A program made the translations under genes and the position numbers. A stretch of 64,000 nt of DNA from assembly GCA_023246725.1 (NCBI GenBank), contig JAHFHV010000001.1, positions 13,618-77,617 on the forward strand, read 5' to 3'. Source of the DNA: Candidatus Magasanikiibacteriota bacterium. GTDB taxonomy: Bacteria; Patescibacteriota; Patescibacteriia; Magasanikbacterales; GWA2-37-8. This document shows positions 1 through 59,317 of the stretch, piece after piece. Under the pieces are notes generated by a model. That model was not told the DNA's origin. It was given only the letters and a program-made list of their open reading frames with translations, and did no database searches. The first letter of the stretch is position 1, and each line of letters starts with the position of its first letter.

Positions 1-43
1 CACCATGGTTATGAATAGTTCGTAGCCATAGTGAGGACAGCCG

Positions 44-77
44 CAAAAAAACAGACTTTTAAGAAGTCTGTTTTTTT
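44..77. terminator. Bidirectional hairpin terminator (acagactt-ttaa-gaagtctgt flanked by A and T runs)
   Basis: Perfect 8-bp stem, A-run upstream, T7 downstream. Confidence 0.5.
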
Positions 78-3099: not shown

Positions 3100-5565
3100 T
3101 TAGATAATAGTGACACTCGCCACTTTATCACCCTCTTCTTTAAAGCGCATCAGGCGAACACCCTGGGTGGCTCTCCCGGTGGTGTTAATTGATTTGAAAG
3201 GTAGGCGGATGACCTGGCCTTTGCCACTCATCATCATTAAGTCTTGGTTTTCCGCATTGGCGCGATTAATAACCTTGGCGTATACAATCGGGCCGGTTTT
3301 GGCGGTAACCTCGGCGGTTTTAATACCACTGCCGCCGCGGCCTTGCACTTTGTATTCATTTAGTTCGGTACATTTGCCAAGGCCATTAGCGCCCACGGTG
3401 AGGAATTCTAGGCTTTGGTTTTTGGGGTCCACAATATCCATGCCAATCACCGTGTCATCACTCCGAAGGCGCATGCCGCGTACGCCGGCAGCCGTGCGGC
3501 CCATACTGCGGACGTCTTTTTCTTTAAAGCGGATGGCCTGGCCACCTTTGGTCGCAATCATAAGTTCATCATTTCCAGTCGATGGCTTGACCCATTCTAA
3601 ATTATCATCGCCCTTAAGTTTAAGAGCGATAAGCCCACTCCGGCGAACATTAGCAAAATCGGCTAGTTCAGTTTTTTTGATGAGTCCTTTGGTTGTGACC
3701 ATCACTAAGTGTTTAATTTTTTCAAGGTTACTCATGGGCAGGAGTGCCGTAATGGTTTCGTTCGGGGCCAATTGTAAAAAGTTAACGAGGGCCTGGCCTT
3801 TGGCGGTGCGGCTGCCTTGGGGAATATCATAGGCCATGAGCTGAAATACCCGGCCGCGGCTGGTGAAAAACAAAATATTGTCGTGCGTGCTCACCGTCAG
3901 GAGTTGGTCCACGGATTCGTCTTCTTTGGTGGTAACACCAATCACGCCTTTGCCGCCGCGCGATTGCTGTTTGAAGGTGTCGGGCGGCAGGCGTTTAATG
4001 TAGCCATCGGTGGTTGTCATTACCATGGTTGGTTCGTTGGGGATCAGGTCTTCGGTAGTAAATTCTTTCACACCGTGGGCAATAATTTGGGTCTTGCGGT
4101 CATTGCCGTATTTCTCTTTGAGCGTTATGGTCTCGGTTTTTACAATGCCGAGAATCTTGCTCTCGGACGCTAAAATTGATTCCAATTCTTTAATGATGAA
4201 TTTTTTTTCTTTTAATTCATCTTCAATTTTTTGGCGCTCTAAGTTGGCTAACTGTTGCAGGCGCATTTCCAAAATCGCCGTAGTTTGCCGGTCGGTGAAT
4301 TTGAATTTTTTCATGAGTTCAACTTTGGCATCGTCTTTGTCTTTGGCCGCCCGGATGGTTTTGATAACCAAATCGATTTTATCCAGCGCCATACTTAAGC
4401 CTTCTAAAATATGGGCGCGGTCTTTATTTTTGACCAAATCAAACTCGGTGCGGCGGCGAATAACCACCTGGCGGTGCTTAATAAATTCCTCTAAAATATT
4501 TTTGATGTTGAGGACGCGCGGCTGAATGCCGTCGACCAGGGCCAGCATGTTGTAGTGGAAGGTGGTTTGAAGAGCGGTGTGGTTGTAGAGTTGGTTTAGA
4601 ATCTTTTTGGGATAAGCGTCTTTTTTCATTTCTATCACCACGCGCACACCGTCTTTATTAGATTCATCCCGAATGTCTTTAATACCTTCAATTTTTTTCT
4701 CTTGGACCAGGCCCGCAATTTTCTCAATCAGTTCCGCCTTGTTCACTTGATAAGGCATTTCGGTAACAATTATGCGGTACTGTCCATTTTTTGTTTCCTC
4801 AATTTCGGCTTTGGCGCGCATTACCACGCCGCCCCGGCCGGTCGCAAAGGCCGCCGCGATATCTTTTTTGCCATACACAATGCCGCCGGTCGGGAAATCT
4901 GGCCCCTGGATAATTTCATCCAGGTCTTCAATGGTAGTTTTGGGTTTGTCAATTAAGGCCACCACGCCGTCACAGAGTTCGCGCAGATTATGTGGGGGGA
5001 TAGACGTGGCCATACCAACCGCGATGCCGACCGTGCCGTTTAAGAGCAGATTGGGAACTTGCGTTGGTAAGACAGTTGGTTCTTGGTGTGAGCCGTCGTA
5101 GTTCGGGATGAAGTTAACGGTATCTTTGTCGATATCGGCGAGCATCTCTTCGGCCAGGGCGGTGAGGCGGGCTTCGGTGTAGCGCATGGCCGCGGCGCTG
5201 TCGCCATCCATACTGCCAAAGTTACCTTGGCCATTTACTAATTGGTGACGCATAGCAAAATCTTGGGCCATGCGAACCATGGAATCGTAAATGGCAGCGT
5301 CGCCGTGGGGGTGGTATTTGGCCATCACCTCACCCACCACGTGCGCGGATTTGCGAAAACGCGCGGTGTGGCGCAGGCCCAAATTGCCCATAGCATAGAG
5401 GATGCGGCGGTGCACGGGCTTGAGGCCGTCGCGTACATCGGGGAGCGCGCGCGAAATAATAACGCTCATGGCGTATTCCAAATATGATTGTTTCACTTCG
5501 TCCACAATCGGGGTGGGAGTAAGGCGGCCGATGTTGTTTTTAATAAGAGGAAGTTGTTCGGACAT
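3100..5565 (-). CDS. gyrA: DNA gyrase subunit A
   Basis: [28 protein letters not shown], active-site Tyr region, C-terminal beta-pinwheel repeats; 821 aa. Confidence 0.92.
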
Positions 5566-5590: not shown

Positions 5591-5710
5591 GTCATTCCGA
5601 ATCCCCCGTCACAGGGGGTGAGGAATCTCTGTCCAATCGTTGTCATTCCGACCGTAGTGGAGGAATCTCGCCAACAATCGCGAGATCCCTCGGCTGCGCT
5701 CGGGATGACA
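5591..5710. repeat. MITE-like palindromic element family 1 (GTCATYCYGA...GGATGACA), 1.5 copies
   Basis: Terminal inverted repeats gtcattccga/cgggatgaca; related copies at 13178, 16076, 23146, 25217, 27229, 45026, 49713. Confidence 0.8.
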
Positions 5711-6282: not shown

Positions 6283-6897
6283 CTAAGTTTTTTCTAATAT
6301 AATTAGCCGTGTTTCTTCCTGCGGCAAATCTTTCTTTTTAATAATAATTTTTTTATCGGTCGTGTCCGGTTTAATTCCCAGCTCTTTAATAAAATCATTC
6401 ACGGGTTTGGCATTCGGGTCGGTGTCGCAATTGTAGGCAATGGGGATGACGATACGCGGTTCAAGGGTAGTCACAATCGCGGCGGCGTCTTCCGCGTTTA
6501 AATAATCGTTCGTGCCGCCCACCGGTACAATGAGGATATCCACGTGGCCTAATTTTTCTAAATCCTCCACGGCGGGTTTTTTAGTCAGCCTCCCTAAGTG
6601 CGCCACGGCCAAACTTTCGGCGTTGATTTTAAACATAACCGTGCCTTCGCTGGTGGGCCAGGTGGTAATCATGGCTTCTTTTAGTTCCACTTCGCCGAGC
6701 GTGGAGAGCACAAACGGACTTTGCGAGAGCGTGGCGGCATTGTCTTCGCCCTTGGAGAACAAGGCGATAGTGGGGGAGAAACTGCGCGGAAACTCTCCCT
6801 TACTAGGTTTGTAGGCGTCAATCAGGACGGTAACATCTTCATCTTGGAATTTGGTTTGGAGTTTAACGCAGGTTTGGCCGAGCCAGGATAAATGCAT
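6283..6897 (-). CDS. Metal-dependent hydrolase, metallo-beta-lactamase fold (UPF0173-like)
   Basis: HVDILIVPVGG...; start moved to MHLSWLGQTCVKL because upstream ORF part lies in repeat family 3. Confidence 0.55.
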   Translation of the reverse strand: MHLSWLGQTCVKLQTKFQDEDVTVLIDAYKPSKGEFPRSFSPTIALFSKGEDNAATLSQSPFVLSTLGEVELKEAMITTWPTSEGTVMFKINAESLAVAHLGRLTKKPAVEDLEKLGHVDILIVPVGGTNDYLNAEDAAAIVTTLEPRIVIPIAYNCDTDPNAKPVNDFIKELGIKPDTTDKKIIIKKKDLPQEETRLIILEKT

Positions 6898-6990
6898 ACA
6901 AGAGTAAAAAGTTTGTAAAGTTATAAAGTTTATAAAGGAAGACAGGACAAGTAACTTTATAAACTTTGAACTTTTCGCCTTTATAAACTC
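6898..6990. repeat. Repeat family 3 (agtttgtaaagttataaagtt...)
   Basis: Near-identical block at 17405-17466. Confidence 0.6.
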
Positions 6991-7102
6991 CAACTATTTT
7001 ACCATAATTTGCCTGGGGTGGCAAGTCCGGCAGAGAGCCTTGACCCGCCCTTATTTTTATGCTAGTCTTGGGCTAACCGGACATATCCGGAGGAGGTGAA
7101 CC

Positions 7103-7486
7103 ATGTACAAGCGAATAGTCCTTCCAGGTAAAATGGGGTCGGCGGGCGGGATCTCTGACGGGCTTTCACTCATGCTCGTGCCCTGTGGGCGGGCCTTCTG
7201 GGTCCACCACAACCTCAATGTGCTGGGATGGAACAGGGCGTGGGCGCCACCGCTCGTCCTCACGCAGAGCCAGGTGCCAGAGGAGTGGCTCGCCAAGGGC
7301 GCTTCGGTCTTGTGGGCTGACCAGGTGACACTCGACGAATGCAACTATTTCTCCAACACCCAACTCGGTGACGGCAGCTACCTCGTCCTGTTCACGCACA
7401 ACCACGGGAGCGGTTCTGATCGCGTGCACAAGATCGATCTGTTTGTCTCGCCGGGGCTCCCAGAGGTCGAACAGACCGAGCCTTGA
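7103..7486 (+). CDS. Hypothetical protein in high-GC island A
   Basis: ggaggaggtgaacc-ATG Shine-Dalgarno; region about 65% GC against about 45% backbone; no recognisable family. Confidence 0.4.
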   Translation: MYKRIVLPGKMGSAGGISDGLSLMLVPCGRAFWVHHNLNVLGWNRAWAPPLVLTQSQVPEEWLAKGASVLWADQVTLDECNYFSNTQLGDGSYLVLFTHNHGSGSDRVHKIDLFVSPGLPEVEQTEP

Positions 7487-7557: not shown

Positions 7558-7625
7558 AGAACCACCTTCCGACGCATCATATATATAGTTCGCTGTATGT
7601 ATGGTGCGAGGGTGGTTTTTTGTTT
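7558..7625 (+). terminator. Long-loop hairpin + T-run element (gaaccaccttc...gagggtggtttttt) shared with 34752-34820
   Basis: Stem aaccaccYtc/gagggtggtt, about 40-nt loop, T-run; conserved acgcatc and atggtgcgagggtggtttt in both copies. Confidence 0.55.
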
Positions 7626-7748: not shown

Positions 7749-8048
7749 GTGTTATATTCTATGTCTCATACCATCCAAGTTCGTGTTAACCCTAAAACCA
7801 AGCGCGCGGTAGGTAAGATTTTTGCGGAGCTCGGCCTGGACATGAGCACGGGGATTAAAATTTATTTTTCCCAGGTGCTTAAAACAGGCGGCGTGCCGTT
7901 TCCTTTATTAACTGAAAACGGGTTTACTCCGGAACAGGAAAACAAACTTTTGGCTATCGCGCGGCAAACCGAAGCCGACTATGCGAGCGGCAAGTTAAAA
8001 GCGTATTCATCGCTAGCAGAAATGAGAAAAGATATTTTGTCGCGCTAA
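7749..8048 (+). CDS. dinJ: Type II antitoxin, RelB/DinJ family
   Basis: VNPKTKRAVGKIFAELGLDMSTGIKIYFSQV resembles DinJ ribbon-helix-helix N-terminus; 99 aa; immediately precedes toxin. Confidence 0.7.
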   Translation: MLYSMSHTIQVRVNPKTKRAVGKIFAELGLDMSTGIKIYFSQVLKTGGVPFPLLTENGFTPEQENKLLAIARQTEADYASGKLKAYSSLAEMRKDILSR

Positions 8049-8051
8049 GGT

Positions 8052-8336
8052 ATGAGATTAATTATCTTGCCGTCAAAACAATTCAAACGCCAATACAGAC
8101 GCCTGCAAGTTTCCGGAAATGTTAGATTGATACATAAGCTTGATGCGATGATTGAGGCGCTGGCTTGTGGCGAGAAGCTCCCGGAAAGCGCCCGAAGCCA
8201 CAAACTTTTGGGCAATCTCAATAAATATGTAGAATGTCATGTTGAGCCGGACTGGTTATTGATTTATCAAGTTTACGAAGAAAATCTCATACTGGAACTT
8301 TTTGCCACCGGCACACACGCTACCCTGTTTGGATAG
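8052..8336 (+). CDS. yafQ: Type II toxin mRNA interferase, YafQ/RelE family
   Basis: C-terminus HVEPDWLLIYQV...ATGTHATLFG matches YafQ signature (HVEPDWILIYK...RTGTHAALFG). Confidence 0.75.
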   Translation: MRLIILPSKQFKRQYRRLQVSGNVRLIHKLDAMIEALACGEKLPESARSHKLLGNLNKYVECHVEPDWLLIYQVYEENLILELFATGTHATLFG

Positions 8337-11886: not shown

Positions 11887-11892
11887 AATTCA

Positions 11893-11925
11893 AAAATCCC
11901 TTGCCGAATTGGCGAGGGATTTTTA
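11893..11925 (+). terminator. Rho-independent terminator
   Basis: aaatcccttgcc-gaattg-gcgagggattttt. Confidence 0.75.
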
Positions 11926-12074
11926 ATTCCACTTGAATCTATCTTTTAAGACAAACTCAAGTGGATGACGGAGCTATAAAAAAATAAGATAAATTATGAG
12001 TCCCGCATCCACCCTGCTTACGCAGTCTGTGTGGGCAGTCCCCGCGAGGCTCCGTCAGACTCGTGGGAGGCTGG

Positions 12075-13067
12075 TTAGCGCGCTGGTTCGACGATGCGGA
12101 ATCCAATCCGTTCGTTAGCAGCCCGTCCGGCTTTGGTCGTGTTTGGCAACATTGGCTTAGTACTGCCAAAACCAGCCATCATCAGTCGCCCGGACGGTAC
12201 TCCCATTATTTCCACCAGATATTGCCCAACTGTTTGGGCGCGCTTTAGTGAGAGACCGAGGTTTTTGCCGGCATTACCCCGATTGTTAGTGTGCCCTTCA
12301 ATGCACACAAGGCTTATGTCTTGCCTGGCGATAAGCGCATTGGCGACCGCGCCGAGCACCGGAAAGCTCCGGGGCAGGATGGTTTCTTTGCCTCGCGCGA
12401 ACCTGATCGGCGAGAGCGTCATGATCATTCCGGCCCTGATTTCTACCAGTCCCGGACAGCCATTCTTGCTAGGGTCCGGGTCGGGCGCGCCACGCTGGTC
12501 GGGGCAAGCGTCTAAGTGGTCGAGCACCGTGTCTTCATCGCGGTCGCGAATCGGACACCCCCGGTATTCGGGGCGCTTATCGGGGTGGGGTCCGGCTGGA
12601 ACAGTTTTACATTCGTCAGCTTCGTTCCCGATGCCGTCGCCGTCGCTGTCCGGGTTGGGCGGCGGCTTCGGCACCGCCTCACGCAGGGGCGGAGCCGGAA
12701 TCGCGGCCGTCTTTTGCGTGTCGGCGATTAACCGTTCCATGTCCGCGATCTTGGTTTCCACTTCGTCGCGGTTCGGTGCCTTGGGCGCTCTCCGGATGTA
12801 CGTCCGGTAGAAGCGCAGGGCTTCCAGGTGCTTCCCGGCGAGTCGGAACGACTGCGCGATGTTGTAGAGGAGCACCGGATCGTCCTTGATCTCGTAGGCC
12901 TGCTGGAAGGCCACGATTGCCTCGTTGTACTTGCCTTGGTCGAATAGGCTGGTGCCGCGCTTGTAGTGCTCGCGGGCGGCCGAGGCCTCGTACTGGATGG
13001 GCTGGCCGAAGGCGAGCGAAGAGAAGACGACGAGGGCGGTGGCGAGAGCGATGGCGATGTGGCGCAT
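12075..13067 (-). CDS. Secreted TPR-repeat / thrombospondin type-3 repeat / OmpA-domain protein, in high-GC island
   Basis: Signal peptide, TPR (YNEAIVAFQQAYEI...), TSP3 Asp-rich Ca-binding repeats (DSDGDGIGNEADEC, DRDEDTVLDHLDACPD), C-terminal OmpA-like; about 62% GC. Confidence 0.7.
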   Translation of the reverse strand: MRHIAIALATALVVFSSLAFGQPIQYEASAAREHYKRGTSLFDQGKYNEAIVAFQQAYEIKDDPVLLYNIAQSFRLAGKHLEALRFYRTYIRRAPKAPNRDEVETKIADMERLIADTQKTAAIPAPPLREAVPKPPPNPDSDGDGIGNEADECKTVPAGPHPDKRPEYRGCPIRDRDEDTVLDHLDACPDQRGAPDPDPSKNGCPGLVEIRAGMIMTLSPIRFARGKETILPRSFPVLGAVANALIARQDISLVCIEGHTNNRGNAGKNLGLSLKRAQTVGQYLVEIMGVPSGRLMMAGFGSTKPMLPNTTKAGRAANERIGFRIVEPAR

Positions 13068-13177
13068 GAAATCCTCCTTGGTCCAAGTTGGACACTTTAC
13101 CCTACAATATTTTGGCCAGTTTGTCAAGGTTGTGCTATACTGTAAGCAGGGTTAACTCATAGCCAATCTCATCAACT

Positions 13178-27228: not shown

Positions 27229-27324
27229 TGTCATTCTGAGCAAAGCGAAGAATCTCTGTCCATCATTCACTTACAATAGAGCAATTGAACGAGACAGAGA
27301 TCCTTCACTGCGTTCAGGATGACA
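27229..27324. repeat. MITE family 1 copy
   Basis: gtcattctgagcaaagcgaagaatctc ... gttcaggatgaca. Confidence 0.8.
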
Positions 27325-27355
27325 GAAAAAAAGCGTTCCGCAGTCCAAAATAAAT

Positions 27356-30699: not shown

Positions 30700-31821
30700 T
30701 TATTGAATCAGGACCGGCTGTGACAGGCCGGTTTTAAATTCTTCGTAGCGGTTATCCACGTACTGCTTTAGATTGGTTTTAAAATTAGCCACGCTGAATT
30801 TTTCGGCCTGGGATTTTATGTTAGCGCTGTTCCAAGCGGTATGGTCAAAATGGAGCACAGCGTCTAACAGCGATTCCCAGGATTGCTTTTGAAAAAATAC
30901 GCCGGTTTCGCCCGGCACAACCGTTTCGGTGGCGCCGCCTTCGCCGTAGGCAATTACCGGCCGCCCGGCGGCCATGGTTTCTACCGGCGTAATCCCAAAA
31001 TCTTCTAGTTGGGGGTGGATAAAGGCTTTGGCGTGGCGCAACAGTTCACCCTTGGCTTCATCCGAAATCCGGCCGACAAATTCTATGTTGGGTTTGGCGT
31101 GTTTTTGCAGATGCTCTAGCTCTGGGCCAGTGCCAAAAATTTTTAAGGGGTACCGCAATCGATTGAAAGCCTGAACCACCATATCCAGCCGCTTGTAAGG
31201 GACAAGGCGCCCGCCGGCAACAAAATAATCTTCCACACTGGCGCTCGGAGAGAATAAATGCGTGTCAGTGGGCGGAAAAATAATATCGCTTTCGCGGCGG
31301 TAATATTTATTGATGCGGTATCGCACGGTGGCGGAATTGGCCACAAAATGGTCCACGCGGTCGGTGCTCATTTTGTCCCACAGGCGCAGACGCGAAATAA
31401 CACCAGGCAGAAGCGCTTTGACAGCGGGATTATAGGGCAAATCGGCCACGTAGGTATGCGTGTCGCTCCACAAGTAGCGCGCCGGGGTGTGGCAATAGGA
31501 AATATGGAGCGTGTTCGGACTGGTTAAGACGCCTTTGGCAAAGCCGCTGGTGGAAGAAACTACGACATCAAAGTCCGATAGATTAAAGCGTTCGGTGGCG
31601 GTGGGCATCAGTGGCAGATACCATTGAAAATGAGATTTGATAAAGGGCATTTTACTAAGCCATGATTCACGAATATTTTCGGCCGGGAAATCTTTAATTT
31701 TAGTTTTGTCGTGGAACAACAAAAAAATTGGCGCTTCTGGCCACAGTTCGCTCATGGCTTTTAAAACGCGTTCGGCGCCGCCGTCTTGGGCCAGGTAATC
31801 GTGAACTAAGGCTAACCGCAT
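30700..31821 (-). CDS. Glycosyltransferase family 4 (GT-B, group 1)
   Basis: EFGITPVETMAAGRPVIA motif. Confidence 0.75.
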   Translation of the reverse strand: MRLALVHDYLAQDGGAERVLKAMSELWPEAPIFLLFHDKTKIKDFPAENIRESWLSKMPFIKSHFQWYLPLMPTATERFNLSDFDVVVSSTSGFAKGVLTSPNTLHISYCHTPARYLWSDTHTYVADLPYNPAVKALLPGVISRLRLWDKMSTDRVDHFVANSATVRYRINKYYRRESDIIFPPTDTHLFSPSASVEDYFVAGGRLVPYKRLDMVVQAFNRLRYPLKIFGTGPELEHLQKHAKPNIEFVGRISDEAKGELLRHAKAFIHPQLEDFGITPVETMAAGRPVIAYGEGGATETVVPGETGVFFQKQSWESLLDAVLHFDHTAWNSANIKSQAEKFSVANFKTNLKQYVDNRYEEFKTGLSQPVLIQ

Positions 31822-31888
31822 ATGTATAATCCTAATTTACGAATTTTGATCCGAATCTACAAAAATCCGAATACTACCAATGACAACC
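31822..31888. repeat. Left half of duplicated intergenic sequence (family 6), matches 33781-33840
   Basis: tataatcctaat(t/c)(t/c)acgaattt...ccgaat. Confidence 0.55.
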
Positions 31889-32275
31889 TTACTCTTTTCC
31901 GGCGCCATTTAGTACACGTCTTGGGTGCAGTCGGTCTTCTCGAAAATTTACCAATATACCCAGCGCTAAATTAAGCGTGGCCAAGTATCGCCTCGTTTGG
32001 TCATAATCGTCCTTAAGCAGATATTTGGGGTATTTAATCTCTAAAATAATTTTGTTGTCAATCAAGAAATCAACTCGATGCCTGCCCGGTTTTTCTCCTT
32101 CGTGTTCACTTAGTAAATTATTTTCTCGTAAGTATTTGAGATCTCTCTCTTTCAATTTTAGTTCAATCAAATCGCAGATTTGTTTTTCACTGGAGAATTT
32201 TCCTAATTCGTTATGAACTTCAAATAAAATTCCGTTAATGATGAACGATAATTCTTTGTGAATTATGTGGGTCAT
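31889..32275 (-). CDS. GxxExxY family protein (PD-(D/E)XK-like)
   Basis: GILFEVHNELG...VDFLIDNKIILEIK...NFRED pattern typical of GxxExxY proteins. Confidence 0.6.
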   Translation of the reverse strand: MTHIIHKELSFIINGILFEVHNELGKFSSEKQICDLIELKLKERDLKYLRENNLLSEHEGEKPGRHRVDFLIDNKIILEIKYPKYLLKDDYDQTRRYLATLNLALGILVNFREDRLHPRRVLNGAGKE

Positions 32276-32342
32276 ATTTCGTTACATTCGTTATTATTCG
32301 GAAATTTGTGGATTCGGCTAAGATTTGTTGATTCGGATTACA
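32276..32342. repeat. Right half of duplicated intergenic sequence (family 6), matches 33845-33910
   Basis: ttcggctaagatttgttgattcggattacatt identical in both. Confidence 0.6.
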
Positions 32343-33770
32343 TTAAACAATGCTTCCCGTTTTTTTAACCACCACAAACGGCGTCTTAACTAGAATTATG
32401 AAGTCAAGATACAAATTCCAATTTTCTATGTAAAACGCGTCCAGTTTTATTTCTTCGGCAAAGGTTAAATGGCTACGGCCGGAAATTTGGGTCAGGCCGG
32501 TAAGGCCGGGTTTAATGGCAAACACAATGCGGTGCTCATTCTCATAGCCAGCCACTTCCCGGGGCTGGTGGGGGCGCGGGCCCACTAAACTCATGTCGCC
32601 TTTTATAACATTCCAAAATTGCGGCAGTTCATCCAAGCTCCAGCGGCGCAGGAAGCGGCCGACCGGCGTGAGGCGCGGATCATTTTTAATTTTGTAAATC
32701 GGGCCGGCCTTGCTGCTGCTGGTTTTAATTAGTTCGGCTTCGGTTTTTAAGGCGGTTTGCCCGTGGCGGCCAAATTGCGGACCGGTGCAGTACTTTTGAT
32801 ACATGGTGCGGAATTTAAGCGTAAAAAATTTCTCATTCAACTGGCCAACGCGTTCGTTTTTATAAATCACCGGGCGGCCGCTTTCTATTAAAATAATCAA
32901 CGTAATAAACAGGTTTAGAGGAATGAAAATAATAAACAGGAGCGTTCCAAAAAACATATCAAACAGGCGTTTTATTATCCGCCCCCAGCCGGTAAGACGC
33001 GTACGGCGCAGTTCAATAATGGGGATGCCGGCAATGGTGGAGACCGTCATGTTGGCGGTAATGGTGGCAAATAAATCGGCCGAATATTTAAAGGTAATGT
33101 GGTTTAGGTTGGCAAATTCAATGGCGGCCAGGGCTTCGGCTTCACTGCCTTTGGGGTCGGTAAAAATAATTTCATCGGGTTTGGTTTTGCGAATAGCCCC
33201 GGCGGATGCGTGGTTAAAATGGTTGAACGTTCCCACGATGTTATAGCCCAGACGTGGTTGACCTAAAAATGCTTCACGGATAGTTTTCGCAATCTTCTCG
33301 TTTCCGATAATCACGGTGCGGCGGAGACCGACGCCAACGCGGTAGAGCAAGGCCTTGCACCCGCGCAGGAGGAGCCGCCCCAGGCTCACCAAGGCAATTG
33401 ACAGCGCCCCACCCACCAAAACCAAAAAGCGCGAATCAAATTTGCTTAGGGTAAAAAAAACATAAATGGTAATGGCCGCAAACCCGGTGGAACAGGCCAT
33501 GACCACGCGAGTTAAATCCCGCGCCAGTTTGCGGTTAGGGTCAGTGTTATAAAGACCGGAGAGGGCAAAAATAATCAGCCAGCCAAAAGCGACCAAGGCG
33601 ACAATGGGCCAGTAGCGCTCCCAGCTTAATTTAGCGGCAAAAGAGACCGGGCGAATGGCAATTATCCACGGCGAAAAACGCAGGGCGTAGGCGGATGCTC
33701 CGGCCAAGAGGAGCATGAGGTAGTCTACCGGCAGTTGGAGAAAGGTGAAGATAAGTTCAAAGCGTTTCAT
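32343..33770 (-). CDS. Polyprenyl-phosphate hexose-1-phosphate transferase (bacterial sugar transferase, EPS/O-antigen priming enzyme)
   Basis: N-terminal TM helices, C-terminal PVIYKNERVGQ...FTLKFRTM...SLVGPRP. Confidence 0.85.
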   Translation of the reverse strand: MKRFELIFTFLQLPVDYLMLLLAGASAYALRFSPWIIAIRPVSFAAKLSWERYWPIVALVAFGWLIIFALSGLYNTDPNRKLARDLTRVVMACSTGFAAITIYVFFTLSKFDSRFLVLVGGALSIALVSLGRLLLRGCKALLYRVGVGLRRTVIIGNEKIAKTIREAFLGQPRLGYNIVGTFNHFNHASAGAIRKTKPDEIIFTDPKGSEAEALAAIEFANLNHITFKYSADLFATITANMTVSTIAGIPIIELRRTRLTGWGRIIKRLFDMFFGTLLFIIFIPLNLFITLIILIESGRPVIYKNERVGQLNEKFFTLKFRTMYQKYCTGPQFGRHGQTALKTEAELIKTSSSKAGPIYKIKNDPRLTPVGRFLRRWSLDELPQFWNVIKGDMSLVGPRPHQPREVAGYENEHRIVFAIKPGLTGLTQISGRSHLTFAEEIKLDAFYIENWNLYLDFIILVKTPFVVVKKTGSIV

Positions 33771-33774
33771 AGTG

Positions 33775-33910
33775 TACGTATAATCCTAATCCACGAATTT
33801 CAATTCGAATCTATCAATTTCCGAATCCTACGAATATTCTTGGTCGTTAAATTCGTTATTATTAGGATATTTGTAGATTCGGCTAAGATTTGTTGATTCG
33901 GATTACATTC
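33775..33910. repeat. Intact copy of family-6 intergenic sequence
   Basis: Contains both halves that flank the GxxExxY gene. Confidence 0.55.
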
Positions 33911-34098
33911 ATTCTACCTGGTTTTATAACTCTTGACAACCAGGCTAAAATATGTTAAGTTAGTATGCTCTTGTGTAGAGCGTTCTTTATTTTTAGCCTT
34001 TCTTTAGTTTTTTAAACTAAAAAATCTGAGAAGGGTTGAAATAATTTCGGATAACAACGCCACGGATCCGGCGCGATGCCGGGGAGGAAATAGAGACG

Positions 34099-34698
34099 AT
34101 GGACATGACCAAGGAAGAGAGCGCGGCCCTCGCGCTCAAGCTTGCCTTGGAAGGGGCCATTGCGGCCAAGGGCGGCGACCCCGGTGTCGTCATGCGACTC
34201 CTCAAGAATGAGTCCTGGCTCGAGCTGGTCGCCGCGCAGCTCATGGAGCTGGCGATCGCCGAGGGTAGCATCTTTACTCTCCTGCTCGACCGGCGTCCCG
34301 GCGTTATCGCGCGGCTGATCGAGGAGGCCGGCTACGAGGGGTACAAGAATCCGGAGATCACCGACGCGAAATACCAGGTCGCGTCCGGGGGGCTGGTCCC
34401 GGTGCGGTTCCGCACCGTCCCGGGCAAGCAGCTCAAGAGCCCCGACGAGTGGGTCTGGCGGAACAACGCCGAGGCCGCCTTCCACAAGATGGGTCTCCAA
34501 TTCCCGGATCCCGCCGAGGCCCTCCTCGTCCCCGCCAAGAACCGGCAGACCGGCCGCGGCAGGCCCTACGTCGCCTTCATCCAGGGCGCCAGCTGCGCGT
34601 TCTACGTAAGCGAGAGAGACCGGAGGCGCAGCCTCGACCTAAGCGGCGGCAACTGGTACCCGGAATACGAGTTCGTCGGCGTCGAGAAGCAGAAGTAG
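34099..34698 (+). CDS. Hypothetical protein in high-GC island B
   Basis: ggggagg SD; about 67% GC; no family recognised. Confidence 0.4.
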   Translation: MDMTKEESAALALKLALEGAIAAKGGDPGVVMRLLKNESWLELVAAQLMELAIAEGSIFTLLLDRRPGVIARLIEEAGYEGYKNPEITDAKYQVASGGLVPVRFRTVPGKQLKSPDEWVWRNNAEAAFHKMGLQFPDPAEALLVPAKNRQTGRGRPYVAFIQGASCAFYVSERDRRRSLDLSGGNWYPEYEFVGVEKQK

Positions 34699-34751
34699 TG
34701 TTCGTGTCTCCTCCCACCCCCCGGAATCGGCCGCGGGGTGGAGAGGCTAAT

Positions 34752-34820
34752 GAGAACCACCCTCTCAACGCATCGTGATTACGAAAATTTCGTAATTATG
34801 GTGCGAGGGTGGTTTTCTTG
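34752..34820 (+). terminator. Second copy of long-loop hairpin + T-run element (aaccaccctc...gagggtggtttt)
   Basis: Perfect 10-bp stem; shares acgcatc and atggtgcgagggtggtttt with 7558-7625. Confidence 0.55.
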
Positions 34821-34846
34821 ATTTAATATTGTTAGAATGGTATAGT
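34818..34846 (+). promoter_or_regulatory. Promoter ttgatt-17-tatagt
   Basis: Read directly. Confidence 0.4.
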
Positions 34847-34853
34847 TTGGCGT

Positions 34854-35153
34854 ATGCAAATAAAAATTTTAAAAATCAATTTACCCGACCCGGAGCGCTC
34901 CATTAAACGTTGTGGGTATGCCGCGCATGTGGACAGGAGAACGCACGAGACCAGTTACGTGCGGCGGCTGGACCGAGATTTATTTCCCCGGTTTCATTTG
35001 TATGTGGAGGAAAAAGGTGAGAATTATTCGCTGAATTTGCATTTAGACCAGCGGGCGCCAATTTACGCTGGCGTTACAGCACATTCGGGGGAATATGATG
35101 GGGTGGTGGTGGAGCGGGAGATGGAACGAATAAGAAAATTGTTGAATTGCTGA
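34854..35153 (+). CDS. Hypothetical protein
   Basis: 99-aa ORF with promoter. Confidence 0.35.
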   Translation: MQIKILKINLPDPERSIKRCGYAAHVDRRTHETSYVRRLDRDLFPRFHLYVEEKGENYSLNLHLDQRAPIYAGVTAHSGEYDGVVVEREMERIRKLLNC

Positions 35154-36337: not shown

Positions 36338-36343
36338 ACAAGT

Positions 36344-36895
36344 GTTTATAGCAGATGATCGCCCGCTCAACGCGCAAGCGCCTGAGCGGGAGGAAAGTCC
36401 GAACACCCTCAGTTTTTTCGCTACCTGCTGAGAAAAGGATAGTGGGTAACACCCACCGTTCCGATGGCAACGTCGGAAAAGGGACAGTGGCACAGAGACA
36501 ATACTACTTTGTCGCGCCGCAGCCTTGGCGAAGGCGGAACCATAAGAATCCCCGCCTTCGCCAAAGCTATGGCGCGGCAAAGGAAAGGTGAAAAGTGTAT
36601 GGGAGTTTTGGTTCTTAAGACCAAAGCTACGATACTCCGTCCCGTAGCAATGCGGGATGTGTGCTAAACCCTGTCTGGTGCAAGAGCAGCGTTTTCGTCG
36701 CAAGGCGAATTCGTAAAGTTCGCTCGCATTGCCTCGCCGAAGCCCCGCAACTGCGGGGCGAAGGCAGGCTTGATCCGGTTAGCAATAACCGGGCTAGATA
36801 AATGATCATCACCACGGATTCTTTGCACGGATCAACACAGATATTAGTGAAGATCAGTGTAAAAAATCCGTGGTACAAAATTCGGCTTATCGCTG
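36344..36895 (+). ncRNA. rnpB: RNase P RNA (bacterial type A-like) with expansion hairpins
   Basis: P4 halves gaGGAAAGUCCGaac (bulged U) and acaaaaUUCGGCUUAucg, GGGUAAcaCCCACC, cUAGAUaAAUGAuc; ends in terminator hairpin 36896-36934. Confidence 0.65.
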
Positions 36896-36963
36896 TAAAC
36901 CGCGCACCACGACAAAATTTGTCGTGGTGCGTTTGTTAGTCATAAGAAGTTGGGGACTGGCTA

Positions 36964-56074: not shown

Positions 56075-57331
56075 TTATAAGTTTACCTGAAACACCCCCT
56101 GTTTATTGGGATCCGTAAACAGCACCTTATTTTTTTTAGCATCGTAGGATATTGAATTGATGTGAAAGTTATTACCCAAGGGAACATTGGTGGTCAAACC
56201 GGTTTTCAAATCAATTTTGTACATGTCATCGGGCAGAGTGTCGGCAATGGCCGGCGACATGCCCGCTCCTTGGGGCAAGTCGCGCGGCACAGCGCAGAAC
56301 AGGGTGTTGTCATCGCCAAACGAACATTTGTTAGCCCAGGTGTTTAAGCGCAGAGTTTGGCGGTTGCTGCCAATATCATCACCATACGAATTCACCACCC
56401 ACAGCTCTGGTTTAAAATCGCTGCGGGCGCTATCCACGCTGTAAAGCAGTTTTTTACCGGTCGGCGACCACTGCGGCTGAAAATTCAACCCTTCCACGAC
56501 CGTGGATTTAAAATTTTCCCCGTTCAAGCCCACAAATAATACTTCCACCCGGTCGGCCCCTTGCGGCGCCCCGGTGCGGGACAAAGCCACGGTTTGCCGG
56601 CTGGGCGACCAATCCACGGTAACGCGGTCGCCATTATCGCCCAAGGGTTCAATTAGCTTGGTGCCGGTGCCGTCGTCTTTGGCTACCACCAGCCAGCGGT
56701 TTTCCGGTGAGAGTCCTAGGCTTTTGGCCGCTACTTCCGTGCTATCTGGGGAAAAGGAAAAATCTTGCCAGTGTTTGGGCAAGGTAATTTGTTTTTTAAG
56801 ATCAAAATTGTACAAAATTTTGGAGCTGTCGGGGTACTCCAGCACCGCTTTGTTACCAGTTTTTGCCCAGGTAACATTTTGGACGTTATAGAATACTTGG
56901 TCGCTTAAGGCAGTGGTTTGCCCAGCGTCGCCCACGCGGTAAAATTTGCCGTCTTGCGCGTTATGGTAGCGAAAATCGCCGCTCGCCGCCAGAGAAGAAA
57001 AAACGGCCGCGTCAGCATTAAGCTGAGTTACCGGTTCCGGCGTAAAGTAGCTGGGCGTCGCTCCAGGAATGGCGCCTGCCGTCGGCAAGCCTCCTTCCGC
57101 GCCGCCGCTTGGTGTTGCCTCGCCCGCCCCGGGCACGCGTTCTCCCGCGCCCGGCAGCTGGCCAGGCGCTGCGCCCGGGCGAGTTCCGCCGACCGTGGTG
57201 GGGGGCGGCGTGGCCTTAAAAAACAGCGTGAAAATGCCCCAGGCAATTAAAGCCGAGATTGTAAGCAAGCCGAGGATGAGGAGAATTCGTTTGAGTCCAG
57301 AAGACATAGGAAGTGAAATATCAAATGACAA
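56075..57331 (-). CDS. Membrane-anchored PD40 (TolB-like) beta-propeller repeat protein
   Basis: N-terminal TM, Pro/Gly-rich linker, repeated propeller blades. Confidence 0.55.
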   Translation of the reverse strand: MSFDISLPMSSGLKRILLILGLLTISALIAWGIFTLFFKATPPPTTVGGTRPGAAPGQLPGAGERVPGAGEATPSGGAEGGLPTAGAIPGATPSYFTPEPVTQLNADAAVFSSLAASGDFRYHNAQDGKFYRVGDAGQTTALSDQVFYNVQNVTWAKTGNKAVLEYPDSSKILYNFDLKKQITLPKHWQDFSFSPDSTEVAAKSLGLSPENRWLVVAKDDGTGTKLIEPLGDNGDRVTVDWSPSRQTVALSRTGAPQGADRVEVLFVGLNGENFKSTVVEGLNFQPQWSPTGKKLLYSVDSARSDFKPELWVVNSYGDDIGSNRQTLRLNTWANKCSFGDDNTLFCAVPRDLPQGAGMSPAIADTLPDDMYKIDLKTGLTTNVPLGNNFHINSISYDAKKNKVLFTDPNKQGVFQVNL

Positions 57332-57367: not shown

Positions 57368-59317
57368 TTATTTCGCGTTGGCGGGTGTCGTAGGCGCGGG
57401 CGCGGGCGGCGGCGCTCCGCCGGTTTTGCCTCCCGCAGAAATTGTCGCCTGGTTTGGCAGGGCTCCGGCCGAGCCCTCGTCGGCCAGTTCTTTGTTAATG
57501 TCAACGAGTTTGTTTTTGAGGTAAACTTTTTTCTTTTCAACGGCCAGCTTTTCTTCCAGCGGCTTAAGTTTTTTGTTAATATCTTCAATCACATCGCCAA
57601 TCGCTTTTACCAGCGGCGCCGCCGGAATGTTTATGGCGCGCAAGGGCTTAATGAACTCCCTGGCTAGAATAAACATCGCGATTGGTATGGCGATGACGGG
57701 CGAGATGATTGCCAAAACAATACCAGCCGGGAAGAATATGCCCAGCAGACGCAAAATCCATTTTAAAACTATCCAGCCGGCGTCAATTTCGGCGCCCGGC
57801 AAAATTTGCGCGAACCGAAGCGACGAACGAGCGCTCTTAAGAATTCCAATCCGCGCTTCCAGGGCCGTTATCATCACTTCGCTCGTTACATTCTCCAGGC
57901 CGTATTTCATGCCTTCTATTTTAGCATAAATGCCGGGAAGAAAAAAGCGGATAATCCGGAGCGAGGTGGTTTTTTTGATGCTGTCCACCTTGCCTTGCAT
58001 TTGGTTTAGCTCTTTCATTATCGCGTCCCGGGCTTTTTTAAGCTTTTGTTTGCGGCTACGAAGAGCGTTGGCAATACCCCCCTGGTCTTTGGATTTGGCG
58101 GCTTCGGGAGGCGCACCATCTTTGCCCGGGGCGCCAGCGGCTTGACCAGCGCCTCCCTCCGAGGGAACTTGCTCGGGCGGGTTGAGCCGCTCATCGTTAG
58201 CCGTGGCCGGCTGGTCATTCGCGCCAGCTGGTTCCGACTGGGCGCCGCGCTCGGCCCCTAACTGGGCGGCTTTATCGCGGTTTAAATCGTTGACGGCTTC
58301 AGGGGGAGCCGCGGGCGGCTCTGTGCCCGGGGCGGAGGGGCCCGCTTCCGGGGCGGCTGGAGAGGCTTCGCCTTCGGTGCCCGGGGCGGCTGGTTGTTCG
58401 CCGTCAGTTGGTGAAGGCTGTTCCCCGCCCGCAGCCTTGTTTGCGGCGTCGGCATCAGAGTCATTTTTTTGTTCAGCGGGATTATCTTCATTTTGATCTT
58501 TTTCCGCTGTTTCATCGGTTGGTTTTTCGTTGTCTGCCGGGGAGCTGGGGGCCTCCGGTGCCGCGTTTTTGGATTGTTCCGGCGGAGTTTCTCCAGGCGC
58601 TGATTCCGTTCCAACCGGCTGTCCAGTCTTGTCATCAGGACCAGCCGTCGGAGTATTGTCGCCACCTTGCGCTGGGCCGCCCTCTGGCTTTGGAGCTGGG
58701 ACGGGCGTCTCTTGGTCGCTTGGCCCGCCAACGCCAGGGGGGACGGTCTGGGCGGTTGGTTTTTCTTTTGTCTCTCCGCCGCTAGCCGCTGGCTGTTCTG
58801 CCTCGCCGCCCTCTGGCGCTGGTTCGCTTTCGGCCGCCCCCCGCTCATACTCGTCACGGGCCGCTGCCCAGGCGGCTTCGTCCAAGGCGTTGCCGCCGTT
58901 GTTTTTTTCCGCCGCTAAAAGTATCTCCTGCCAAGCATCGTCTTGTTCCGGCAAGGGAAGATTAGTTTTTAAGTTCACTATGAGTTTGTTGCCAGAAGTT
59001 TGCGCTTGGTTCCCTGGCCCCGAACTTACTGCGTTAACAACTTCCACTGGGGCACCAGAACCAGAAACTGGAGTAGTAGGTTCGGCTGACACCGGCGCCG
59101 GCTGATCTTTCTCCGGAGCTTTAGAAGCCTGTGCCGCGAGATCGGCAATGGTTCTGTTGTTGTCATGCCTAACGTTTCTGGTTTGCCCAAGTTTCGTGCG
59201 CAAAGCGCGGTGTTTTAAATAATCAGAATAGCCGCTCGAGGCAGGAGTAGCGCCTTCCGCGTCTGGCGCGGCACCCGGCAACTGCGGGGTGGGAGCCGTG
59301 GAAGGGTCAACAGGCAT
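57368..59317 (-). CDS. Hypothetical membrane protein with about 400-aa Pro/Ala/Glu/Gly-rich low-complexity region
   Basis: C-terminal TM segments (IFFPAGIVLAIISPVIAIPIAMFIL); compositional high-GC due to low complexity. Confidence 0.5.
   Translation of the reverse strand: MPVDPSTAPTPQLPGAAPDAEGATPASSGYSDYLKHRALRTKLGQTRNVRHDNNRTIADLAAQASKAPEKDQPAPVSAEPTTPVSGSGAPVEVVNAVSSGPGNQAQTSGNKLIVNLKTNLPLPEQDDAWQEILLAAEKNNGGNALDEAAWAAARDEYERGAAESEPAPEGGEAEQPAASGGETKEKPTAQTVPPGVGGPSDQETPVPAPKPEGGPAQGGDNTPTAGPDDKTGQPVGTESAPGETPPEQSKNAAPEAPSSPADNEKPTDETAEKDQNEDNPAEQKNDSDADAANKAAGGEQPSPTDGEQPAAPGTEGEASPAAPEAGPSAPGTEPPAAPPEAVNDLNRDKAAQLGAERGAQSEPAGANDQPATANDERLNPPEQVPSEGGAGQAAGAPGKDGAPPEAAKSKDQGGIANALRSRKQKLKKARDAIMKELNQMQGKVDSIKKTTSLRIIRFFLPGIYAKIEGMKYGLENVTSEVMITALEARIGILKSARSSLRFAQILPGAEIDAGWIVLKWILRLLGIFFPAGIVLAIISPVIAIPIAMFILAREFIKPLRAINIPAAPLVKAIGDVIEDINKKLKPLEEKLAVEKKKVYLKNKLVDINKELADEGSAGALPNQATISAGGKTGGAPPPAPAPTTPANAK

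Follow-up and report, generated by a model that had tools for sequence, protein, structure and literature searches.

We describe here a small GC-rich gene and its 3' hairpins within a stretch of 64,000 nucleotides (the window) of contig JAHFHV010000001.1 (positions 13,618 to 77,617) from Candidatus Magasanikiibacteriota bacterium. The gene lies on what is called below island B, and its sequence points to a variable protein of the kind rewritten by diversity-generating retroelements (DGRs). Its open reading frame (ORF; 34099-34698, + strand) encodes 199 aa. The GC content of the window is 48.8% and that of the ORF was measured at 66.2%, an earlier note made from the sequence alone having put the island at about 67%. 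At the first, second and third codon positions (GC1, GC2 and GC3) values of 0.66, 0.43 and 0.90 were obtained, and among the 43 ORFs of the window (mean GC3 of 0.545, sd 0.094) this ORF is the most extreme, with a z-score of approximately 3.8, indicating an atypical codon usage. Since the excess sits at synonymous sites, it is not a by-product of the amino-acid composition of the protein, the competing explanation that the note had raised. The left flank is a Bac_transf sugar-transferase gene (32343-33770, minus strand), in line with the exopolysaccharide (EPS) locus placed there by the note; on the right, the riboflavin genes ribE and ribH, given as the other neighbors, come only after a 99-aa ORF at 34854. 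The region of island B was also found, at 99.8-100% identity, in six independent contigs assembled from other samples, which rules out an assembly chimera.

In its sequence organization, island B is a single autonomous transcription unit, composed of a putative promoter, a leader of about 130 nt, the ORF and 3' hairpins. The probable promoter (33933-33961, + strand), as read from the sequence, consists of TTGACA (33933-33938), a 17-nt spacer with a TG (33953-33954) and TAAGTT (33956-33961). Its -10 element matches the consensus at three of six positions and was therefore missed by a simple promoter scan; TTGACA-17-TATACT stands at the equivalent place in two other units treated below, that of the closest homolog (on a contig named L001) and that of island C. 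Inside the leader, just downstream of the presumed promoter, a terminator-like hairpin followed by a T tract (ATGCTCTtgtgtAGAGCGT TCTTTATTTTT, 33965-33992, + strand) was observed, which may be an attenuator. The part of the leader at 34030-34098 (+ strand) can be aligned with the leader of L001, with which it is partly conserved, and contains GAAATAATTTC, CAACGCC, a small hairpin (CCGGC-gcgat-GCCGG, 34068-34082) and the Shine-Dalgarno (SD) sequence GGGGAGG (34081-34087), located 11 nt ahead of the ATG as the note had already seen. The GC rise of the island begins at approximately 34055. By its own promoter and by a composition unlike that of its neighbors, the unit resembles the 'moron'-type units of phages (promoter, ORF, terminator).

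No match of the island B ORF was found in Pfam, PHROGs, PDB sequences or Rfam. A Pfam match to PRESAN, obtained with one family member (E = 0.0025), and a PDB sequence match at E = 0.095 were both dismissed, and neither the ORF nor its family gave a match by tblastn in phages and plasmids or in IMG/VR. A word-index search of 5.8 billion proteins returned only five relatives of the island B protein, and an exhaustive profile search of 1.84 billion proteins returned 56 family representatives of 137-338 aa, plus one weak match of 1194 aa. Outside the species, the nearest relative is P0002 (55% identity, E = 4e-54), a homolog encoded at 6001-6588 of L001, a 1.03-Mb contig of a metagenome-assembled genome (MAG) labeled "bacterium", a Patescibacteria relative. 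This homolog gene stands directly upstream of a template repeat (TR), in which the last 109 bp of the gene are repeated. Between the variable repeat (VR, 6474-6582) and the TR (6954-7062) 11 differences were counted, all 11 at TR adenines, and the TR is followed by a bAvd gene, then by an RVT_1 reverse transcriptase (RT) gene with the motifs LGNLTSQ and YADD. With the adenine-only differences and the bAvd and RT genes alongside, the L001 locus is a complete DGR whose variable protein is the homolog. The arrangement of this cassette (L001 6954-8502) is uncommon. In such a system, an RT-Avd complex copies the TR into a cDNA, adenines being misread, and this cDNA takes the place of the VR, at the 3' end of the target, so that the ligand-binding face of the lectin fold is rewritten.

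Over the C-terminal 35 residues, an alignment of 44 family members shows near-invariant scaffold columns in alternation with variable columns. The scaffold residues include F168, V170, R177 (43/44), L179, W186, V195 (42/44) and C196 (33/42). Most scaffold columns have 0.2-1.6 bits (2.3 for A167), and the variable columns reach 3.1-3.7 bits, exactly at the nine AAC codons of the L001 TR. The segment of the window gene homologous to the L001 VR (34584-34686, + strand, by alignment) shows scaffold codons alternating with NNC codons: eight of the nine codons aligned to the AAC codons of the TR are NNC (TGC, AGC, AGC, GAC, AGC, GGC, AAC, TAC), a result with a chance probability of about 0.02 at a background of 51% NNC. 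The scaffold DNA itself (GCGTTCTACGT, GACCGGAGGCGC and TACGAGTTCGT) is conserved between the window and L001. The protein comprises a helical N-terminal part followed by a predicted C-type-lectin-fold domain (residues ~56-199), and its AlphaFold model matches C-type lectin folds, including those of the DGR proteins TvpA and Mtd. Taken together, these sequence and model data identify the product, which the note had left as an unknown protein, as a C-type-lectin-fold variable protein of the DGR type, and place it in a small family of putative DGR variable proteins in Patescibacteria, which has no Pfam entry. The gene retains the VR scaffold together with the NNC codon pattern left by AAC-rich templates. 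Because no N-terminal signal peptide or membrane segment is evident, as judged by eye and not with a predictor, the protein is probably cytoplasmic.

Adjoining two other family members, Hammerhead_3-like motifs (CUGAUGAGUCC...GGACGAAAGG) were observed at L002 6530-6585 (+) and L016 85-151 (+), with scores of 31.3 and 25.9 bits that lie under the gathering score of 48.5. One of them is located approximately 100 nt downstream of the family gene, the other approximately 120 nt upstream. No association between hammerheads and DGRs was found in a literature search, and no Hammerhead_3-like motif was found in the window.

The C-type-lectin variable proteins of known DGRs, such as Mtd of Bordetella phage BPP-1, TvpA of Treponema denticola and CLec of CPR (Candidate Phyla Radiation) and DPANN organisms, share with the island B protein the predicted lectin fold and a VR at the extreme C-terminus, in which scaffold residues alternate with AAC-derived codons. 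They also have in common a complete cassette, here that of the L001 homolog, with an RT carrying the (I/L)GxxxSQ motif, and a GC-rich inverted repeat after the VR. In contrast, the island B gene has no TR, Avd or RT within approximately 37 kb, its family is matched by nothing in Pfam, PHROGs or PDB, the protein has a very small size (150-230 aa) and no signal peptide or membrane segment seen by eye, its GC3 is 0.90 in a genome of ~49% GC, and a C-terminal Cys has been lost.

The search for a DGR acting on this copy covered approximately 76 kb of the source genome, namely the window, L013 (about 3.7 kb to the left) and L018 (about 9 kb to the right). For the TR, an adenine-tolerant pattern was used, in which each non-A base of the VR was allowed to be itself or A. 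In the window, this pattern and blastn-short (applied to the window only) found the VR alone, and the pattern gave no match in L013, L018 or L019. It gave none either in genome_contigs, metagenome_contigs and viral_contigs, from which the VR itself is also absent, the source genome not being included. With the L001 proteins as queries, tblastn, which among the flanks covered L013 only, found no RT or Avd in the window or L013, and the called genes of L013 and L018 contain no RT or Avd Pfam domain. Any DGR lies therefore more than ~37 kb away on either side of the gene. The end of the protein also departs from its family: FVGVEKQK* is found in place of GVCE*, a stretch which in L001 overlaps the end of the VR resembling the initiation of mutagenic homing (IMH) site, and the conserved Cys is lost. 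Since no TR, Avd or RT lies within this distance and the terminal Cys is lost, the gene would be either the remote target of a distant DGR or an orphan that is no longer diversified, the orphan being somewhat more likely. Remote DGR targets more than 100 kb away have been documented, mainly outside CPR lineages (Wu et al. 2018, PMC5758913). As in the remote targets of Treponema and Legionella (PMC5758913), the VR-bearing gene is far from any RT; unlike for these, the cognate TR of island B was not found, so that orphan and remote target are indistinguishable by this comparison. A variant protein with 98% identity, P0001, carries three substitutions which looked A-to-N; once polarized on the family consensus, two of them, both located outside the VR, appeared as C-to-A changes of the window lineage, and an adenine-specific mutation with a DGR signature was rejected.

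Two hairpins follow the stop codon of the island B gene. The first is a small GC-rich hairpin with a CCACCCC/GGGGTGG core (34710-34746, + strand, by folding), which begins 12 nt past the stop codon and has a GC core of 7 bp and a loop other than the 4-nt GRNA. The inverted repeats of known DGR targets have a GC-rich stem of 7-10 bp and a 4-nt GRNA loop and lie at 4-34 bp from the VR (Guo et al. 2011, PMC3240598). In the present case the length of the stem and its position agree with this, the loop does not, and by analogy the small hairpin is likely the counterpart of the DGR target inverted repeat. The second hairpin is the one that the note had recognized from a perfect 10-bp stem, formed by AACCACCCTC (34755-34764) and GAGGGTGGTT (34805-34814), which is present as described. 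The 41-nt loop assigned to it is in fact folded, since a 5-nt bulge is followed by a 16-bp inner stem with a 3-nt loop. The whole is a long bipartite hairpin (34752-34817, + strand) with a 13-bp outer stem, the 5-nt bulge on the 5' side and 29 pairs in all, four of them G.U. It is followed by UUUUCUU, so that the announced U tract exists but has no clean run. The 66-nt element has a folding energy of -40.9 kcal/mol, and the surrounding stretch of 81 nt one of -42.1 kcal/mol (z = -9.3). Directly after it, the consensus promoter that had been noticed for the next gene was found (TTGATT-17-TATAGT with an upstream TG, 34818-34846), immediately before the 99-aa ORF. The -35 hexamer of this ORF starts at the end of the hairpin, inside its U-rich tail, and the promoter-like site ends 7 nt upstream of the ATG, a distance which suggests a leaderless mRNA. 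The 99-aa ORF (region 34818-35153) has no Pfam or PHROG match.

The 10-mer of the stem occurs three times in the window for 0.03 expected, and the 17-mer GGTGCGAGGGTGGTTTT is found without any change at both 7603 and 34800. This agrees with the view of a second copy of one hairpin element, the other being located after island A. The island A ORF (7103-7486, + strand, 127 aa, GC3 of 0.77) has no homolog outside this species and no recognizable kinship to the island B protein (a relation was ruled out, with a BLASTP E of 0.04 and an hhalign probability of 0.3%), and its structure prediction, with a pLDDT of 36, was unusable. The grouping of the two islands is nevertheless justified by their common hairpin. 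Hairpin A (7558-7619, + strand) has a 12-bp outer stem, a 4-nt bulge, a 15-bp inner stem, a UUCG loop and five G.U pairs, and the next sequence is UUUUUUGUUUU. A RelB / YafQ-type toxin-antitoxin pair is located directly downstream of island A (7749-8336), and a ParE-type pair near island B, where it lies upstream of the EPS genes (L006 5882-6431).

When hairpins A and B were used to build a covariance model, it matched L013 at 3685-3755 (26 bits, E of about 5e-5), with no further copy in the ~76 kb. The 3' half of this third hairpin makes up about the first 45 bases of the window (1-44, + strand). It belongs to island C (L013 3390-3750, of the same genome, just left of the window), which has a GC content of 0.67-0.725, an ORF of 55 aa (L013 3448-3615) with a hydrophobic N-terminus and several Cys, and a small GC-rich hairpin as well. 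Its long hairpin is composed of a 10-bp outer stem, a 5-nt 5' bulge, an inner stem of ~15 bp and a 3-nt loop (-38.2 kcal/mol; z = -9.0 on an 81-nt stretch). The sequence of the outer stem is entirely unlike that of A and B, and the hairpin is followed by A7 and a separate short terminator, with no U tract. In genome_contigs, metagenome_contigs and viral_contigs, the sole match of the hairpin pattern was inside a coding region of Flavobacteriia (L012) and was judged to be a chance one.

Hairpins A and B are alike in the outer stem and at the base of the inner one, whereas their apical stems differ in sequence and yet are paired, the inner stem having been kept through compensatory changes. Owing to the four to five G.U pairs in each of them, the sense strand folds better than the antisense strand by 15-18 kcal/mol (hairpin B, + strand -40.9 and - strand -25.7; hairpin A, sense -35.2 and antisense -17.6), which points to selection on the sense-strand RNA and not on a symmetric DNA cruciform. 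Long, interrupted hairpins are also found 60-70 nt past the stop codons of the family genes on L001 and L017, and the native neighboring genes end in short, simple terminators. As judged from these sequences, the long hairpin is a class of 3' structure on high-GC mini-genes, whose architecture is kept and not its sequence, and this class closes at least three unrelated mini-genes of this genome. Its action would be that of a sense-strand RNA structure, which terminates transcription and/or stabilizes or processes the 3' end. At the level of sequence and fold, A and B show the stable sense-strand hairpin and the U tract of rho-independent terminators, although a simple terminator scanner skips both owing to the bulge and to the length of the stem. 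Compared with such terminators and with 3' stabilizing hairpins, they are alike in the sense-strand hairpin followed by U-rich sequence; they differ by a stem of 25-29 bp with a fixed bulge, which exceeds the short terminators of the native neighbors, and hairpin C differs by having no U tract. A terminator activity of A and B is plausible but cannot be the whole explanation, protection of the RNA 3' end or RNase III-type processing being a reasonable alternative.

The long hairpin could also be the recognition hairpin or cruciform of a DGR target, used for retrohoming, with islands A and C as further targets. In phage BPP-1, inverted repeats downstream of the VR are needed for efficient homing, and the structure of the stem matters over its sequence (PMC3240598); a long hairpin downstream of the VR whose structure is kept while its sequence varies recalls this, and so do the long hairpins of L001 and L017 and the presence of the same element behind three different small ORFs. 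However, with its 29 pairs, an AT-rich apical half and a start 54 nt past the stop codon, the element is unlike known DGR hairpins in size, loop and distance from the VR. The strand asymmetry due to the G.U pairs is against a symmetric DNA cruciform. Moreover, the hairpin occurs after genes without VR, and islands A, B and C have no common VR-like DNA, so that a single TR cannot serve all three. The separate small hairpin at 34710-34746 lies nearer the VR and appears by analogy to be the better candidate for the DGR target inverted repeat. On the whole, we regard a recognition role of the long hairpin as very unlikely.

A further hypothesis is that the bipartite hairpin is the recombination end of a mobile cassette, attC-like or IS200/IS605-like, whose enzyme would be encoded elsewhere. 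It is in agreement with three short units of atypical composition that have the same 3' architecture and unrelated ORFs, and the strand asymmetry and extrahelical bases recall sites that are read as folded single strands. The bases of the hairpins are AACCACC...GGTGGTT followed by TTTC or TTTT in A and B, which lie at least 27 kb apart, and GCGGC...GCCGC followed by AAAA in island C. No RYYYAAC/GTTRRRY core, cassette array, or adjoining integrase or transposase was seen at any copy (integrases were not searched for systematically). In contrast to typical integron cassettes, every unit carries a promoter of its own. An integron attC was ruled out by the core-site consensus and by the gene organization. 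No presence/absence polymorphism was observed in the six contigs, and the covariance model, as said, finds three copies and no other in the ~76 kb. A cassette end therefore seems a most improbable explanation.

The high GC content can be followed in the relatives of the gene. On L001 the homolog has a GC3 of 0.90, for 0.41-0.52 in the other genes of the locus; the RT and Avd genes are host-like, with 0.42 for the adjacent RT. GC3 values of 0.83, 0.67 and 0.46 were obtained for the family genes of L017, L016 and L002, whose flanks have 0.37, 0.455 and 0.44 GC, respectively. Between the window gene and that of L001, 44 fourfold sites stand in codons for the same amino acid and 23 of them agree, for a proportion of 0.46 predicted by composition alone, which means that synonymous divergence is saturated. 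On the coding strand of the island B ORF, A (0.19) is not below T (0.15), so that simple adenine avoidance is not the answer. The rise of GC begins in island B, L001 and island C at a common CAACGC motif, approximately 45-60 nt upstream of the ATG, downstream of an AT-rich leader and a promoter of the form TTGACA-17-TA(A/T)(G/A)(T/C)T. As this AT-rich promoter and leader are part of the conserved unit, the latter does not, in its entirety, form a compositionally foreign block.

These data bear on the reading of island B as a generic horizontally acquired island, in which an ORFan with its terminator would have come from a high-GC donor and been placed between the sugar-transferase and riboflavin genes, with islands A and C from the same source. 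The GC3 of 0.90 against a window mean of 0.545, and of 0.77 in island A, the unrelated neighborhoods of the window gene and its L001 homolog, and the sequence that islands A and B have in common at their 3' ends are in favor of it, and a GC deviation of DGRs has been read as recent transfer by Wu et al. 2018 (PMC5758913). Against it, no homolog is attributable to a high-GC organism: the searches of 5.8 billion and 1.84 billion proteins revealed no high-GC donor, and the homologs whose DNA could be read all lie in low-GC contigs (flanks of 0.37-0.49 GC), those with a name being of the Patescibacteria type. Phage, plasmid and viral collections gave no match, and no mobility gene or flanking direct repeat was found at island B. 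A single old transfer should have ameliorated, and the GC3 of 0.90 in both copies at saturated synonymous divergence therefore speaks against it; repeated recent transfers would need a high-GC reservoir, to which none of the protein, phage, plasmid and viral searches points. The similar place of the GC rise in three units and the host-like RT and Avd genes beside the L001 homolog are also at odds with this reading, which we consider unlikely, and the recurrent uptake of high-GC DNA put forward by the earlier note is not demonstrated.

Another possibility is a class of autonomous high-GC mini-genes of Patescibacteria that has not been described before, with islands A, B and C as members and the bipartite 3' hairpin (outer stem of 10-13 bp, bulge of 4-5 nt, inner stem of 15-16 bp, small loop) as defining trait. 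A process linked to the hairpin, such as gene conversion or copying by an RT or a single-strand recombinase, would actively maintain their extreme GC3, and DGR variable proteins would be only one type of cargo. We hold this broader proposal to be decidedly doubtful.

The reading that we favor, and hold to be probable, is that of an autonomous unit encoding a lectin-fold variable protein of the DGR type, which would be a remote or orphan target and would be closed by a 3' hairpin acting at the RNA level. Several points weigh against it. The structure model was built on only six sequences, and the link with DGRs depends on one relative with a full cassette, the other relatives being on short contigs or having no TR in 11.7 kb. 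In the ~76 kb covered, this copy lacks a TR or RT of its own. Its VR is identical in the same-strain contigs of the six assemblies, an identity that means little since the assemblies represent the same strain and the region is 99.96-100% identical in them; only one of the three residues that differ in P0001 is inside the VR; and the C-terminus has lost the family GVCE* end with its Cys. The absence of a U tract in hairpin C makes "terminator" insufficient as the sole account of the long hairpin, and a GC3 of 0.90 is not accounted for by the model of a DGR target.

Other GC-rich parts of the window do not belong with island B. The OmpA island (12075-13127, - strand), which the note had put in the same group, encodes a protein with TPR, thrombospondin-type-3 and OmpA domains; its GC3 is 0.73, it has no bipartite hairpin and an ordinary short terminator is found at approximately 11890-11930, so that the grouping is unjustified. 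The same holds for the Ala/Pro-rich stretches of the GC peaks at 57-59 kb, for which amino-acid composition can account. The peak at 58003-58981 is within a 649-aa ORF (57368-59317, - strand) rich in Pro, Ala, Gly and Glu, with an ordinary GC3 of 0.56 and raised GC1/GC2 of 0.66/0.51, and that at 56899-57326 covers the Pro/Gly/Ala-rich N-terminal region of a 418-aa ORF (56075-57331, - strand).

Some additional features were observed in the window. Two copies are present of the intergenic sequence that lies upstream of the sugar-transferase gene (31821-32344 and 33775-33909; 66 nt at 94% and 61 nt at 80%), and a low-GC PDDEXK_3 gene (31889-32275, GC3 of 0.37) is located exactly between the repeat halves in the second copy, which looks as if this gene had been inserted into a copy of the sugar-transferase promoter region. 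Another PDDEXK_3 gene is present between pheS and pheT in L018. Intergenic palindromic repeats of ~30-60 nt occur in both orientations (TGTCATCCTGAGCGTAGCGAAGGATCTCTGTC and variants) at 5640, 13238, 16074, 23195, 27229-27332, 45025, 45107 and 49768, and a second family of palindromic repeats (GGGATCGCCACGCCCCGCTTGAGCGGGGCTCGCGATGACA) at 25313 and 48034. An RNase P RNA of the bacterial class A was identified at 36343-36905 (+ strand; 134 bits), its 563 nt for a model of 367 positions indicating large insertions; the ORFs listed across it are spurious.

What had been an anonymous "foreign island" becomes a recognizable lectin-fold variable protein of the DGR type, from a small family present in no domain database. 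The DGRs of Patescibacteria, whose repertoire is still poorly described, thereby gain a stand-alone target in which no signal peptide is seen by eye. If this gene were truly a remote target, remote targeting would be extended to the CPR, in which the rule is believed to be a single adjacent target. Finally, the maintenance of a GC3 of 0.90 across a saturated divergence, together with a hairpin common to unrelated mini-genes, could bear on the way in which accessory genes are kept and expressed in reduced genomes.

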